Shown: in pieces, positions 39,683 through 46,947 of the stretch
Position numbering within the stretch: position 1 is the stretch's first letter
Layout of the letters: every line of letters starts with the position of its first letter
Assembly (NCBI GenBank): GCA_014874385.1
Contig: JACWAE010000025.1
Span: 3,910-67,909, forward strand
Direction: 5' to 3'
Length of the DNA stretch: 64,000 nt
Source: Dehalococcoidia bacterium
GTDB lineage: Bacteria; Chloroflexota; Dehalococcoidia; SZUA-161
Program-made: the position numbers and the translations under genes
The notes under the pieces: generated by a model
What the model was told of the DNA's origin: nothing
Seen by the model: the letters and a program-made list of their open reading frames with translations, nothing else
Databases searched by the model: none

Positions 39683-39735
39683 GGTTCAGTTAAATCGTGG
39701 TTGATTGCCGCGCTGCCTACTATTTAGAATACAAC
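39683..39735. repeat. Left terminal inverted repeat of the cassette
   Basis: GGTTCAGTTAAATCGTGGTTGATTGC-CGCGC-TGCCTAC-TATTT-AGAATACAAC. Confidence 0.7.
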
Positions 39736-39757
39736 AGCATCCAGTTGCCTAACCCTC

Positions 39758-39786
39758 TTGACAAATTGTCAACACAATGATATTGT
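39758..39786 (+). promoter_or_regulatory. Candidate promoter with an overlapping perfect palindrome TTGACAAATTGTCAA (putative operator)
   Basis: TTGACA (39758-39763), 17-nt spacer, TATTGT (39781-39786), then ATG at 39793. The palindrome 39758-39772 overlaps the -35 element. Confidence 0.4.
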
Positions 39787-39792
39787 TGTGTC

Positions 39793-40230
39793 ATGATACC
39801 AGAACTTGTAGATATTGGTGCAACCTGGAGAGTGCTGCCTCCAGGGATACACGATGCGACTTTAACCTAGATTGAGTATCGCTTTGCGACGAATGAAAAA
39901 CGCAGAGGCCTATATAGAGGTCTTTTGGCAGGATGCAACTCCTTAAAATCTGCTGGATGCAGGGTTGTTTACTTGGATGGAAGCTACGTGACAGAGAAAC
40001 CAATCCCCAGGGACTTTGATGTCTGTTGGGATCCGACGGGGGTTGAACCTGGTAGGCTCGATCCTGTTCTCTTAGATTTTGATAATCTACGAAGAAATCA
40101 GAAACTGAAGTACGGAGGCGAATTTTTCCCGTCTAGTGCAAGAGCTGATGGAACCCATAACTTTGCTGACTATTTTCAAACAGACCGAGATACGGGGAAG
40201 AACAAAGGAATCATACGCATCCGAATCTAA
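39793..40230 (+). pseudogene. DUF6932-like (MNT/pol-beta fold) nucleotidyltransferase interrupted by an in-frame TAG at 39868-39870
   Basis: 'MIPELVDIGATWRVLPPGIHDATLT*IEYRFATNEKRRGLYRGLLAGCNSLKSAGCRVVYLDGSYVTEKPIPRDFDVCWDP...' is one frame. It has a 'DGS...DFD' NTase motif and a single stop codon. Confidence 0.6.
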
Positions 40231-40254
40231 TGAGCAGAGAGGGGAGGGGGAGAA

Positions 40255-41559
40255 ATGATTAGTAACGAACGGCAGTATCTGGTAACAAAGCAACAGCTTA
40301 AGAAACTTCGTAAAGCTATTAGAGAATTCAATTTGAAGGAAGTTGCAGAGCGTGTAGGCTCAGATATACTTGCGACAGCGGAATTGAGCGCTCTCAAAAG
40401 TGAGGAGATATCTCTAGCGGATCAAGTGAAGGAATATGATGCTCTCCGTACTGGTGAGATCACAATACTCGAGGCTACGGATTTGAGAGAGCTGCCAAAG
40501 ATTCTTATCCGCGCAAGAATAGCTCAGGGACTGACGCAACGCGATTTGGCTGAACTTGTTGGACTCAAGGAGCAACAGATTCAGCGATATGAATCGGATG
40601 AGTATGCAACTGCAAATCTGCGTCGCCTCGGTGAAATTGCAGGAGCGTTGAAGCTCAACATTACTGAGATCGCAGAATTCAAGACAAAGCCTTCAACTAC
40701 GGAGATAGTAAGCCCAGGTGGGCTTGACTGGAACAGATTTCCTGCGAAAGAGATGTATAGAAGACAATGGTTTGAGGGCTTTAGCGGGTCATTATCTGAG
40801 GCTTTAGGGGAAGCCGACACGCTGGTGAGTGGTTTTGTTAAACGTGTCTTTCCTACGCTAGCAGGAGTGTTACATCGGAAACAGGTTAGGGCTGGTTCAA
40901 TCGTTGATGACTATGCTCTGTTAGCTTGGGAATGTAGAATTCTACATTTGGCAAGCAAAGTAGAGCTCAAACGTCGATACGAAGACGGATTGATTGATTC
41001 TAAATGGATTGCAGAACTTGCCAAAGAGAGCAGAAATGACAATGGCCCGCTACGTGCCAAGGAAAAATTGGCGGAAGTTGGTATTGCATTTGTGGTCGAG
41101 CCTCATCTAGTAAATACGTATCTAGACGGGGCAGCGTTGCTTCATGGCAAGGGGCCAGTGATAGGGCTAACGTTGCGATACGATCGTTTAGACAATTTCT
41201 GGTTCGTGTTGTTTCATGAGTTAGCTCATATCATAATACATCTGCGCAAGAGTAAGCTGGAAGGCATTTTTGATGACTTGGATAATATCAGCGCAGACAG
41301 ATTAACAAAGAAATTGGAGGATGAAGCGAATCATTGGGCTGAGGAAACCCTTATTCCAGAGGAGAAATGGAGTTGTGAATTAGCTCGATATACTAGGACT
41401 AGAGAATCGGTAATAGAAACAGCTAAGCACCTAAATATCCATCCTGCCATCGTGGCAGGTCGGATAAGGCGCGATGCCAATGATTACATAATTCTGAAAG
41501 ATCTTGTTGGGCAGGGTGAGGTTAGGAAACATTTTCCTGATGCTGGTTTTGGTAGATGA
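40255..41559 (+). CDS. XRE-family HTH fused to an ImmA/IrrE (M78) zinc metallopeptidase domain
   Basis: HTH 'IAQGLTQRDLAELVGLKEQQIQRYE'. HEXXH motif in 'FVLFHELAHIIIH'. 434 aa. Confidence 0.8.
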   Translation: MISNERQYLVTKQQLKKLRKAIREFNLKEVAERVGSDILATAELSALKSEEISLADQVKEYDALRTGEITILEATDLRELPKILIRARIAQGLTQRDLAELVGLKEQQIQRYESDEYATANLRRLGEIAGALKLNITEIAEFKTKPSTTEIVSPGGLDWNRFPAKEMYRRQWFEGFSGSLSEALGEADTLVSGFVKRVFPTLAGVLHRKQVRAGSIVDDYALLAWECRILHLASKVELKRRYEDGLIDSKWIAELAKESRNDNGPLRAKEKLAEVGIAFVVEPHLVNTYLDGAALLHGKGPVIGLTLRYDRLDNFWFVLFHELAHIIIHLRKSKLEGIFDDLDNISADRLTKKLEDEANHWAEETLIPEEKWSCELARYTRTRESVIETAKHLNIHPAIVAGRIRRDANDYIILKDLVGQGEVRKHFPDAGFGR

Positions 41560-41575
41560 GGAAGGGGGTGTGACA

Positions 41576-42661
41576 ATGAGTTTTAGTTCAGGGCAATATG
41601 TCCCTTGCCTTAGATGGAAGCAGGGAGAATATCAAGCATTGTCTCGACTGTCATCGAACGCTCAAGTAGCTATAGTACCTTTAATAGAGATCCCTGAGAT
41701 AGGGTACGATTTTGAAAGCGATACGAACTCGAAATCCATTGATGAACACTTATCAAAGTTTGCCAAGAGAGTCAAGGAGAAGTGGGGTAGGCATTGTTTG
41801 GTAGATATAAATATTATCCCACCCTCGGAACGTATGAATAATGGAGAGCATCCACTTGCATTCGTTTTTGAAGATCTAAGGGCGAAAAAGGTATCGGCGA
41901 TTCCAGTGATCAATCTTAAACAAGACTATGCCTGTCAGAATGAAATTAAGACAATTGTCGCCACTGATATGCGTGGGCTGTGCATTAGAATTGGCATAGA
42001 TGAGGCGATAAAGGCTGATTTAGCAGCTTCCTTGGAAGTACTTATTCAACGATATAACGTTGGTATTGACGAATGTGATTTCATTCTTGATCTAGGAGCT
42101 CCAAACTTCGAGCCAATAGGTAGCTTCGGGAATCTATTGGAGACAATCATTGGAAAACTACCGCACCTTAAGGAGTGGCGTTCGTTCGCGCTGATTGGTA
42201 CCTCTTTCCCCCAATCGATGGGTGGACTGCAATTGGGGGCATCAATTATTCCGCGAAACGAGTGGAGCCTTTATAAGTCCCTTATAGAGCGATTGATGCT
42301 TTCGGAAATTCGGATTCCGGCCTTCGGTGATTATGGGATTAATTATCCGGATATCTTAAGGATTGACCCGCGATTAACCAAACCATATGCTACTGTTAGA
42401 TATACGATTGAAGATGGTTGGTTAATAGTAAAAGGTCGCAATGTACGCGATTATAAATATGGTCAATATCGTGGACTATGTCAAGAAGTTATCGCGTCTG
42501 GGTACTATAGCGGAATAACGTTCTCGGAAGGCGACAAGTATATTCATGGCTGTGCGCAGGGCACTCAATCAACCGGGGGGCTTACGACGTGGCGCTGGGT
42601 TGGAACAAATCATCACCTGGAGAAAGTGGTGAAGGATGTCGCCAATTTATTCGCTTCATAA
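41576..42661 (+). CDS. Beta_protein (T4 beta protein)/sce7725-like family protein
   Basis: The N-terminal 'YVPCLRWKQGEYQALSRL' block and size (361 aa) resemble the Beta_protein/sce7725 family as I recall it. ATG 41576 is preceded by GAAGGGGG. Confidence 0.55.
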   Translation: MSFSSGQYVPCLRWKQGEYQALSRLSSNAQVAIVPLIEIPEIGYDFESDTNSKSIDEHLSKFAKRVKEKWGRHCLVDINIIPPSERMNNGEHPLAFVFEDLRAKKVSAIPVINLKQDYACQNEIKTIVATDMRGLCIRIGIDEAIKADLAASLEVLIQRYNVGIDECDFILDLGAPNFEPIGSFGNLLETIIGKLPHLKEWRSFALIGTSFPQSMGGLQLGASIIPRNEWSLYKSLIERLMLSEIRIPAFGDYGINYPDILRIDPRLTKPYATVRYTIEDGWLIVKGRNVRDYKYGQYRGLCQEVIASGYYSGITFSEGDKYIHGCAQGTQSTGGLTTWRWVGTNHHLEKVVKDVANLFAS

Positions 42662-43199
42662 GGTATTCCCTAATTGTTGCTCGCAGTTCGGACGAATCCA
42701 ATCTGCTAACAATACGAATGTACAGATTTGCGCGTTTCTCCCGTAACTGTTTTCCATGAATCCCTAAGTTCTCGAGAATCTCTCGGGCTTCGTTTCTCCA
42801 TAGTAGCTGAGCGACTGCATAGTTATCTACGCATGTATTACGTTTTGGGCGTCGTACGGTTTTAAAATTCACCGCCCCGCGTTGACCTTCTGTCACAGAT
42901 ATTATTCCCCACCATTCGGGTAGCATCGCTATTGCCTCGTTAAGATGTCGTTCAGCTACAATCACAAAAACACGGTCGAATACTGCGTTATAGCTAGCTA
43001 TCTGGCCATCTAATCTACGCAAAGAATCCACATCGCTCTTTATCTCATATCCGATCAGATGCCCATTAATAATTGCAATATCAGCTCTACACTTGCCATG
43101 GCGCAATCCTAATTCGTCGACCACTATGGTAGACGAGTCAAAATGGTGCTTGCGTAAGCACTTCTTATGAAAGCTAGTTCTGATTTGTAAATCGTTCAT
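42582..43199 (-). CDS. sce7726-like PD-(D/E)xK nuclease-fold protein
   Basis: 'VVDELGLRHGKCRADIAIINGHLIGYEIKSDVDSLRRL...VFDRVFVIVAERHL...PEWWGII' contains a D...E-x-K core. Its 3' end overlaps the convergent Beta-protein gene by 80 nt. Confidence 0.65.
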   Translation of the reverse strand: MNDLQIRTSFHKKCLRKHHFDSSTIVVDELGLRHGKCRADIAIINGHLIGYEIKSDVDSLRRLDGQIASYNAVFDRVFVIVAERHLNEAIAMLPEWWGIISVTEGQRGAVNFKTVRRPKRNTCVDNYAVAQLLWRNEAREILENLGIHGKQLREKRANLYIRIVSRLDSSELRATIREYLMKRINWRHPSPLSPGDDLFQPSATS

Positions 43200-43382
43200 T
43201 TGTTTTAATGTAGCTGCAATTGTTTGCCGAATTATACATTATAAGTCAAGCATATTCAAATACTAAGCGGCGCATGGCGAATTTCCTCATTCTTTCTTTT
43301 CACAAATTAGGGTTGATATGCCAAGAGCAGCAGTAGTGCCAGCAGTAGATAGGACTTTTCCGAGAAGCTAATTCAATATATC

Positions 43383-43433
43383 GTTGTATTCTACATGATG
43401 GTAGGCAGCAATCAACGACGATCTAACTGAACC
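43383..43433. repeat. Right terminal inverted repeat of the cassette
   Basis: The reverse complement reads GGTTCAGTTAGATCGTCGTTGATTGC-TGCCTAC-CATCATGT-AGAATACAAC. Confidence 0.7.
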
Positions 43434-45993: not shown

Positions 45994-46947
45994 ATGAACA
46001 TGATTCCACAAAGCCTTCAAGAAGCTATCGTTTATTTCTCGGATGAACAGCACTGTCACGAGTTCCTCGCTGGTATGCGTTGGCCCGATGGCCCTGTATG
46101 CCCACACTGTGGTTCCAAGCAGGTATCTTTCCTTGAGAGGCAGCATCGCTTTCAGTGTACTTCCCGCCACGCCAATAGGCAGTTCACTGTTAAGGTTGGC
46201 ACAGTATTTGAGGACAGCCATATCCCGTTGAACAAGTGGTTGCCAGCCGTTTGGCTCATTAGTAATGCTAAGAATGGAGTCAGTTCCTACGAAGTCGCTC
46301 GTAGTCTGAAGGTTACTCAAAAGACAGCCTGGTTCATGATGCACAGAATACGTTTGGCTATGGGAGTTGACAATGGCAAATTCTCTGGCACAGTCGAAGC
46401 CGATGAGACTTTCATTGGTGGTAGGGCTGTCAATATGCACAAGGCCAAGAAAGAAAAGGTTATCAAAGGCCGTGGCACTATCGGCAAGGTCGCTGTCATG
46501 GGACTGCTTGAACGGCACAATCTTGACGATATGCCCAGCAAGGTTCAAACCAAGATACTTGCCGATACCAGCCGAAATACAATTCCACCTGCGGTCAAAC
46601 AGTCGGTTGAAGCTGGCAGCAACCTTATCACCGATGCACTGTCTCCCTACGACAACCTGAATACCGAGTATGTCCATGAGGTGATTGACCATGCCGAGGC
46701 TTATGTTCGAGGCCACGTTCACACCAACGGCATTGAAAACTTCTGGAGCCTCTTGAAGCGAGCAATCAAAGGCACATACGTTAGTGTTGAGGCATTTCAC
46801 CTGCCCAAGTATCTTGACGAACAAACTTTCCGTTTCAACGCTCGAAAGACTAACGATGCTAACCGATTCGAGTCTGTGGTAGAAGGCATTACTGGCAAGC
46901 GATTGACCTATAATCAACTCATTGGGGCTGCTACGACGCCAGCCTAA
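45994..46947 (+). CDS. IS1595 (ISXO2-like) family transposase
   Basis: N-terminal zinc ribbon 'CPHCGS...FQCTS', 'IPLNKWLPAVWLISNAKNGVSSYEVARSLKVTQKTAWFMMHRIR', and a DDE domain starting 'VEADETFIGG'. Confidence 0.9.
   Translation: MNMIPQSLQEAIVYFSDEQHCHEFLAGMRWPDGPVCPHCGSKQVSFLERQHRFQCTSRHANRQFTVKVGTVFEDSHIPLNKWLPAVWLISNAKNGVSSYEVARSLKVTQKTAWFMMHRIRLAMGVDNGKFSGTVEADETFIGGRAVNMHKAKKEKVIKGRGTIGKVAVMGLLERHNLDDMPSKVQTKILADTSRNTIPPAVKQSVEAGSNLITDALSPYDNLNTEYVHEVIDHAEAYVRGHVHTNGIENFWSLLKRAIKGTYVSVEAFHLPKYLDEQTFRFNARKTNDANRFESVVEGITGKRLTYNQLIGAATTPA

Follow-up and report, generated by a model that had tools for sequence, protein, structure and literature searches.

A four-gene cassette in a Dehalococcoidia bacterium related to the PD-λ-2 and gop-β-cII anti-phage systems

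The locus described here lies in a 64-kb stretch of DNA from a Dehalococcoidia bacterium (contig JACWAE010000025.1), the whole of which is referred to below as the window. Region 39683-43433 of the window is best read as a horizontally acquired four-gene cassette, because its G+C content drops by about 12 points (43-46%, against 54-60% in both flanks) and an inverted repeat flanks it. The genes are arranged in the order DUF6932, Xre helix-turn-helix (HTH)/M78 peptidase and Beta, with cII converging on Beta from the opposite strand. As best supported by the comparisons below, the cassette joins a RosmerTA/PD-λ-2-like pair, made up of a small partner and an HTH-M78 protein, with a P4/Rac-type Beta and a convergent cII. 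A first-pass annotation made from the sequence alone had recognized three intact genes in an AT-rich cassette. The three open reading frames (ORFs) and the shift in composition were recovered as it described them, but the cII gene lies on the minus strand. The DUF6932-like gene, which that annotation had regarded as a mere neighbor, is present and is the first member of a four-gene unit.

Proteins encoded by the cassette

The HTH-M78 protein, termed B here, is encoded by an intact ORF of 434 amino acids on the plus strand (40255-41559). It comprises a coiled N-terminal region, an Xre HTH, a middle domain and an ImmA/IrrE M78 metallopeptidase. The earlier proposal of an XRE HTH fused to an M78 peptidase was borne out by Pfam searches, in which residues 86-139 matched HTH_3 (E 9e-11) and residues 287-403 matched Peptidase_M78 (PF06114; E 1.7e-8, 34.7 bits against a gathering score of 22 bits). 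The zinc motif HEXXH corresponds to H321-E322-x-x-H325 and is at least 97% conserved in 71 homologues. In PADLOC, residues 151-429 matched PD-Lambda-2_B (PDLC03982) at E 5.9e-87, with weaker matches to RmrA (4e-12 to 1e-8), CapP (5.9e-8) and CapH (2e-4). Residues 30-136 also gave weak phmmer matches to eukaryotic EDF1/MBF1 (E 6e-4) and to NCBIfam aMBF1 (E 1e-3), which probably reflect generic Xre-HTH likeness.

The B proteins that accompany DUF6932 and those that accompany HigB share 38% identity over residues 156-411, and their N-terminal ~155 residues, the HTH included, cannot be aligned. From these alignments we infer that the N-terminal region may be a partner-specific interaction or regulatory module. 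Pairs of HigB and B that lack Beta are very common (6035 proteins at E<=1e-20) and adjoin Tn7 tnsD/tnsE, type I restriction-modification (R-M) genes and similar genes. As cargo of Tn7-like elements, a DUF6932+B pair (Acinetobacter baumannii pAC1633-1, locus L008, 380-5245) and a HigB+B pair (Vibrio, locus L109, 456-5200) each stand first after tnsD/tnsE; on pAC1633-1 the Beta gene is cut off by an IS30-family element with blaNDM-1.

The Beta gene follows on the plus strand (41576-42661) as an intact ORF of 361 amino acids counted from an ATG that lies 16 nt past the B stop codon, with the purine-rich, Shine-Dalgarno-like sequence GGAAGGGGG just 5' of it. Its product matched Pfam Beta_protein (PF14350) at E 3.9e-83 over profile positions 1-341 of 342, and the PADLOC PD-Lambda-2_C models over their full length (PDLC03984, E 8.8e-54; PDLC03983, E 3.9e-51); the P4-specific PADLOC 'beta' model reached the N-terminus only (E 2.5e-7). 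Thus, of the two family names given to this protein in the first-pass annotation, Beta_protein stood and sce7725-like did not: sce7725_fam (NF033831, cut-off 60 bits) gave no match to the window Beta even at E<=10, and the Beta of the Rac prophage matched it at E 0.099 over 35 N-terminal residues only. The family is large, with ~3,200 clusters at 50% identity.

An AlphaFold2 model of Beta, the structure prediction recommended at the outset, is a (β/α)8 TIM barrel with a predicted local distance difference test score (pLDDT) of 94 and a predicted template modeling score of 0.92. Foldseek searches with this model returned solely generic barrels at 8-13% identity, none of them specific, including galactanase, TrpA, IspG, dehydroquinase, tRNA-guanine transglycosylase, UVDE and APN1. 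The highest query template modeling (TM) score among these matches was 0.45, for tRNA-guanine transglycosylase. Residues E18, D172, R202, D252 and H347 are invariant family-wide, including in P4 β and Rac β, which argues for Beta being an enzyme and not a passive antidote.

The cII gene, an intact ORF of 205 amino acids on the minus strand (42582-43199), encodes a protein that matched NCBIfam sce7726_fam (NF033832, cut-off 70 bits) with 184.9 bits (E 1.4e-54) and the PADLOC 'cll' model at E 3.5e-35. Its precomputed Pfam family is PF26915, Phage_P4_cII, and BLASTP against P4 cII gave 29% identity (E 4e-20). RefSeq labels P4 cII and P4 β as 'sce7726 family protein' and 'beta family protein', respectively. 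The AlphaFold2 model (pLDDT 89.9) shows an αβββαβ core and a C-terminal helical domain; D40 lies on β2 (strand 37-44), E52-x-K54 on β3 (strand 48-54) and Q66-x3-Y70 on the helix that follows β3 (63-73). The residues of the motif set E29, D40, E52-x-K54 and Q66-x3-Y70 are at least 97% conserved in 81 loci. Foldseek matched the model to SfsA in the PDB (4dav; probability 0.99, E 4e-3, TM 0.34) and, among phage models, to MmcB-like repair proteins, an Mrr domain and the Exo VIII PDDEXK domain (E 3e-7 to 1e-2). Fold, structural matches and near-invariant motif together support the prediction that cII is a PD-(D/E)xK nuclease, in agreement with the earlier sce7726-like assignment. Searches of PDB sequences with the Beta and cII profiles yielded nothing significant.

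The 3' ends of Beta and cII overlap in antisense by 80 nt (42582-42661, by ORF coordinates). This arrangement was compared across 97 loci (the window, L004, L005, L007, L010-L089 and L094-L108) and was found in 94 of them, with overlaps of 26-173 nt and a median of 68. The overlap length is always 2 mod 3, which fixes the relative reading frame across phyla. Only the P4-type loci lack an overlap, having a gap of 26-27 nt instead. Beta with a convergent cII was present in every locus examined, and the pair also stands on its own: in the Rac-SA53 prophage, in 93 of 5426 complete Escherichia coli genomes, and in 9 of the 12 viral contigs that carry Beta, the other three holding one four-gene cassette and two P4-type loci. 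In blastn searches of the E. coli genomes with Rac beta DNA and with an Aeromonas HigB+B locus, either Rac-type loci only or nothing was recovered. Because Beta and cII occur alone and HigB+B pairs occur without Beta, Beta and cII form an invariant core, with the genes upstream serving as exchangeable input modules. In addition, tblastn matches to cII/sce7726-like proteins were obtained in 280 phage records, of which 198 are genomes of Bacillus phages, 37 of Enterococcus phages and 15 of Lactobacillus phages; these matches are mostly partial and below 40% identity.

The DUF6932 gene (39793-40230, plus strand) is the first gene of the conserved unit and is interrupted in the window by an in-frame TAG at codon 26 (39868-39870). 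Translated through the stop, it matched Pfam DUF6932 at E 1.7e-32. Across 29 aligned homologues, the motif G63-S64-x9-D74-F-D76 does not vary. Polymerase-β-type nucleotidyltransferases carry the motif hG[GS]-x9-13-Dh[DE]h on a minimal nucleotidyltransferase fold. By this motif, DUF6932 is a putative minimal pol-β-type nucleotidyltransferase of ~145 residues. No link to named NTase or MNT families emerged from Pfam, NCBIfam or PDB sequence searches.

Distribution and relation to known defense systems

To define the distribution of the cassette, one genome per GTDB species was scanned with a Beta alignment, which gave 80 loci whose Beta proteins are 35-83% identical to that of the window. These loci span more than 10 phyla and include Chloroflexota, Planctomycetota, Verrucomicrobiota, Alpha- and Betaproteobacteria, Nitrospirota, Acidobacteriota, Actinomycetota, Spirochaetota and Myxococcota. 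The order DUF6932, B, Beta and convergent cII is kept in ~70 of the 80, wherever the contig allows. All-against-all clustering of ORFs from the 80 loci revealed no fifth conserved gene and no other gene in more than six loci. Because its order is kept and no other gene is common to more than 6 of the 80 loci, the cassette is a self-contained unit of four genes, which travels from one unrelated context to another. The same four genes in the same order are found on the Sinorhizobium meliloti plasmid pEm1132a (101650-105010; DUF6932, XRE, beta and convergent sce7726) and on one viral contig, and DUF6932 with the peptidase occurs on A. baumannii pAC1633-1 and Marinibacterium pLA6_006. The pEm1132a copy is intact, as is that of locus L094 (7232-10624).

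The surroundings of the cassette are varied. In the window and in three long contigs of metagenome-assembled genomes (MAGs) it stands alone between housekeeping genes, and on plasmids it adjoins VapBC and Phd/YefM modules. A Pfam and PADLOC census of the 134 nearest-neighbor ORFs gave a heterogeneous set with few defense and few plasmid genes, the defense genes being AbiEii, MADS, methyltransferases, a CBASS cyclase, GajB and HerA. This distribution resembles that of toxin-antitoxin (TA) modules. The cassette was also considered as a mobile-element immunity regulator of the ICEBs1 ImmR/ImmA type, and this was rejected because the genes beside it include no conserved integrase, excisionase or conjugation gene. 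On an S. meliloti plasmid the cassette adjoins a gene for an 'RHE_PE00001 family protein' (locus L007, 6983-8122). Such a gene also lies on a Neorhizobium plasmid (locus L093, 4796-5926), beside a module of ImmA and a small unannotated ORF in the HigB position; the site may be a rhizobial plasmid hotspot.

Among characterized systems, PD-λ-2 of E. coli ECOR42 (QOYB01000002, 229385-232009) has three components: A resembles HigB, B is an Xre-peptidase and C resembles P4 β. Through abortive infection, it confers protection on E. coli against λvir (Vassallo et al. 2022, PMC9519451). On its own B is toxic, A relieves this toxicity, and defense depends on C (PMC9519451). The second and third genes of the window cassette (B and Beta) are homologous to PD-λ-2 B and C and stand in the same order, and in both systems a small gene lies directly upstream of B. 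The two differ in the N-terminal ~150 residues of B, which are unrelated, and in the convergent cII, an obligatory fourth member here for which the E. coli clone that was tested has no room. They differ in the first gene as well: the PADLOC PD-Lambda-2_A models gave no match to DUF6932 at E<=0.01, whereas a true HigB matched them at 6.8e-49. No HigB was found in the 64-kb window by tblastn with three HigB seeds (best E 0.05).

The gop-β-cII locus of satellite phage P4 protects against λ and P1 (Rousset et al. 2022, PMC9122126). According to Ghisotti (1990), as cited in PMC9122126, Gop is toxic without β, and β is its antidote. In this locus, as in the window, a small gene lies upstream of a Beta-family gene, which is followed by a convergent cII/sce7726 gene. 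However, the window cassette has an HTH-M78 gene inserted between the upstream gene and Beta, P4 cII is 60 residues longer, and the P4 genes are parted by a 27-nt gap with a terminator, where those of the window overlap. The stand-alone pair of the E. coli Rac-type prophage Rac-SA53 and of other prophages shares the convergent, 3'-overlapping Beta and cII (identities 28% and 39%, respectively) but lacks the upstream DUF6932 and HTH-M78 genes.

The pairing of B with an upstream partner has its own relatives. HTH-ImmA proteins act as a hub antitoxin with swappable toxins in the NetFlax network (PMC10440598). The cassette shares with RosmerTA and this hub an HTH and M78 protein with a variable small partner, often encoded first. 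However, the RmrA matches of B are far weaker than that to PD-Lambda-2_B, Rosmer is a two-gene system without Beta and cII, and DUF6932 is not a described RmrT toxin. The same pair of domains, an M78 HEXXH peptidase and an Xre HTH, recurs in ImmA/ImmR (ICEBs1), IrrE/DdrO (Deinococcus) and CapP/CapH (CBASS). In the cassette, by contrast, both domains are fused in one polypeptide with a middle domain, and no integrase, CBASS or repair regulon is attached. HEPN-MNT systems resemble the first gene in that DUF6932 is ~145 residues long, has the pol-β motif G-S-x9-D-x-D and comes first in a TA-like operon, but the cassette encodes no HEPN partner.

Taken together, DUF6932 occupies the slot held by HigB in PD-λ-2 and by Gop in P4, and the four-gene form is a variant of known systems and not a new kind. 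The first-pass annotation had called the genes uncharacterized and without assigned function. This does not hold, since the families of PD-λ-2B, of PD-λ-2C and P4 β, and of P4 cII all belong to tested anti-phage systems. It had also allowed that the genes might form an already established named system; the families are indeed known, but neither PD-λ-2 nor gop-β-cII is present in full, because HigB-like A and Gop are both absent. Literature searches on Beta, cII/sce7726 and DUF6932 found no mechanistic work.

Borders, promoter-like sites and adjacent genes

The flanking repeat consists of two imperfect arms. The left arm (39683-39737, ~55 nt) contains an inward-facing sigma70-like TTGATT-N18-TAGAAT, and the right arm (43381-43433) an inward-facing TTGATT-N16-TAGAAT. 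A 29-mer of the repeat occurs in only two places in the 64 kb, against a chance expectation of 0, and the closest relative, locus L010, carries an exact copy of a 26-mer of the right arm 5' of its cII gene. The repeat may mark where a mobile unit ends, or it may be an operator peculiar to this lineage. A wider role as a conserved operator or terminal repeat was rejected, since the repeat is lineage-specific and only the closest relative shares an arm. No target-site duplication was evident at the cassette borders.

A consensus scan located two further promoter-like sites, which are pattern matches only. One precedes DUF6932 on the plus strand (39758-39786, TTGACA-17-TG-TATTGT, 10/12 consensus matches and an extended -10 TG), and the other lies ~30 nt upstream of the cII ATG on the minus strand (43231-43259, TTGAAT-17-TATAAT, 10/12 matches). 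The DUF6932 site ends 7 nt before the ATG, and no Shine-Dalgarno sequence is present; the operon mRNA may be leaderless. An IS1595-family transposase gene (Zn_ribbon_IS1595 and DDE_Tnp_IS1595) lies 2.5 kb downstream of the cassette, at 45994-46947. Two NfnAB-like oxidoreductase genes stand between the two, and a link between transposase and cassette is not shown.

Probable immune function and competing explanations

Given these relationships, the cassette is very probably homologous to, and functions as, a phage-defense or TA-like module, and we put the probability that it is an immune module of the toxin-antitoxin or abortive-infection type at roughly 60%. The mobile-looking conflict or defense-type module with an HTH-M78 switch, Beta and a nuclease that was envisaged at the outset is supported in this sense. 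Of the neighborhood evidence anticipated for such a module, the conserved linkage of the genes was found across the 80 loci, but enrichment in defense islands was not.

Several observations weigh against an immune role of this type. All function of the four-gene form is transferred by homology from PD-λ-2 and gop-β-cII. The tested PD-λ-2 clone ends less than 400 bp past gene C, leaving no room for a complete cII (PMC9519451 supplement); as a result, a putative role of cII in defense is seen only through the cloned P4 locus. The first gene here is a putative DUF6932 nucleotidyltransferase and not a HigB/RelE-fold protein. Gop is likewise absent: the PADLOC 'gop' model matches P4 Gop (4.8e-70) and no protein of the window, and in tblastn with P4 Gop the top match in the window had an E of 0.59 and the 80 loci gave none. 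B reaches the PD-Lambda-2_B model solely from residue 151 on, and the window Beta is only ~21% identical to P4 β. Defense-island enrichment is not evident in the census of 134 neighbors. The best inverted repeats between the promoter regions of 65 other loci do not rise above shuffled controls, which speaks against a shared operator. Finally, the DUF6932 gene of the window itself carries a premature stop.

The identity of the toxic partner is a further point of this kind. DUF6932 is disrupted while B is intact in three loci, a pattern that fits a dispensable toxin. Two nanopore (long-read) MAG loci show the opposite, with B split and DUF6932 intact: in L054 (5613-7014) and L083 (5739-7014) a break near residue 90 divides B between two ORFs that do not share a frame, which could be a sequencing frameshift or a real disruption. 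With loci in conflict, the disruption pattern is a weak clue to which partner is the toxin. In PD-λ-2 the toxic member is B and not A (PMC9519451).

The strongest competing explanation is that the locus in this genome is an inactive remnant decaying after horizontal transfer, a serious possibility that we nevertheless consider somewhat less probable than not. DUF6932 is intact in 65 of 67 homologous loci and has internal stops in two. The residues L15, G18 and H20, which lie upstream of the stop in the window, are at least 97% conserved in homologues. The closest relative, L010, likewise lacks an intact DUF6932 N-terminus. Recoding of the TAG, as pyrrolysine or by an alternative code, was considered and rejected, since translation table 11 leaves the neighboring genes uninterrupted and L010 has Glu at the homologous codon. 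The TAG is therefore most likely a nonsense mutation, and the window copy, its first gene being damaged, probably either operates as a three-gene remnant or is in decay. In four other loci, DUF6932 and the 5' part of B are lost and Beta is kept, and cII is intact in all loci whose contig reaches it; decay elsewhere thus tends to begin at the DUF6932 end. However, B, Beta and cII of the window are complete and retain every catalytic motif, three independent metagenome assemblies give the same sequence (the TAG recurs in two further metagenome contigs), and Beta with cII alone is a widespread stand-alone unit. Moreover, the longest intact DUF6932 ORF (39925-40230, 101 amino acids from a TTG start) would retain the G-S...D-x-D motif.

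It is improbable that the cassette serves mainly as an addiction or stabilization TA module for plasmids and genomic islets, with only incidental effects on phages. Its isolation among housekeeping genes, both in the window and in three MAG loci, its VapBC and Phd/YefM neighbors on plasmids and the scarcity of defense genes among its nearest neighbors are consistent with such a role, as are the annotation of one B homologue as a 'plasmid stabilization protein' and the classification of HTH-ImmA proteins as type II antitoxins (PMC10440598). However, relatives of three of the four proteins come from loci selected or tested for phage protection, and a cassette of four enzymes is more elaborate than addiction needs; addiction and defense are, besides, not mutually exclusive.

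An R-M-like system, in which Beta would be a nucleic-acid-modifying TIM barrel (TGT/DpdA-like or Endo IV/UVDE-like) that protects self DNA, cII the cognate nuclease and the Xre-HTH a C protein, is very improbable: the invariant, convergent and 3'-overlapping Beta and cII recall a layout common in type II R-M systems, the invariant acidic and His residues of Beta are typical of an enzyme, tRNA-guanine transglycosylase, UVDE and APN1 are among its Foldseek matches and cII resembles Mrr- and MmcB-type nucleases, but the barrels matched are generic, no cofactor-binding motif was identified, PD-λ-2 acts by abortive infection from a clone unable to hold a full cII, and P4 β is known, from the account of Ghisotti's work cited above, as an antidote to Gop and not to cII.

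For the immune module, a stepwise mechanism can be proposed, which as a whole we regard as rather unlikely to be correct in every step. The HTH-M78 protein would be the switch, and its HTH would repress the cassette. The partner-specific N-terminal ~150 residues of B would hold DUF6932 in a mutually neutralized complex. ImmA/ImmR, IrrE/DdrO and CapP/CapH provide precedents for signal-activated cleavage of an HTH repressor. As in these systems, a phage cue, whether DNA damage, single-stranded DNA or a phage protein, would activate the M78 protease and break the neutralized state. Killing or growth arrest would then be brought about by the cassette enzymes: cII would cut DNA, the DUF6932 nucleotidyltransferase would modify a protein or RNA target, and Beta, acting as an enzyme, would be required for the defense output, like PD-λ-2C. 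The convergent, overlapping transcripts of Beta and cII may couple the expression of both units.

A broader and still less certain evolutionary proposal, which we think unlikely in its full form, is that Beta and cII are an ancient, self-sufficient core to which input modules (Gop, HigB with HTH-M78, or DUF6932 with HTH-M78) were bolted on repeatedly, the four-gene form being the most widespread. If so, Beta, as a TIM-barrel enzyme and not a passive antidote, would work with the PD-(D/E)xK nuclease, for example to modify, sense or process a nucleic acid or small molecule, PD-λ-2 and gop-β-cII would represent a single superfamily in two forms, and DUF6932 would be a new nucleotidyltransferase toxin or a regulator of the HTH-M78 switch.

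PD-λ-2 and gop-β-cII are validated systems without a known mechanism that have been catalogued as unrelated. The locus described here and its ~80 relatives show that they have a common Beta and cII core, upstream of which the first gene is swappable, with HigB, Gop and DUF6932 as the alternatives. The four-gene form would probably escape rule-based detectors in which HigB or Gop is obligatory. The predicted folds and the conserved residues, namely E18, D172, D252 and H347 of Beta together with those of cII and the DUF6932 motif, offer handles on the mechanism of both named systems.

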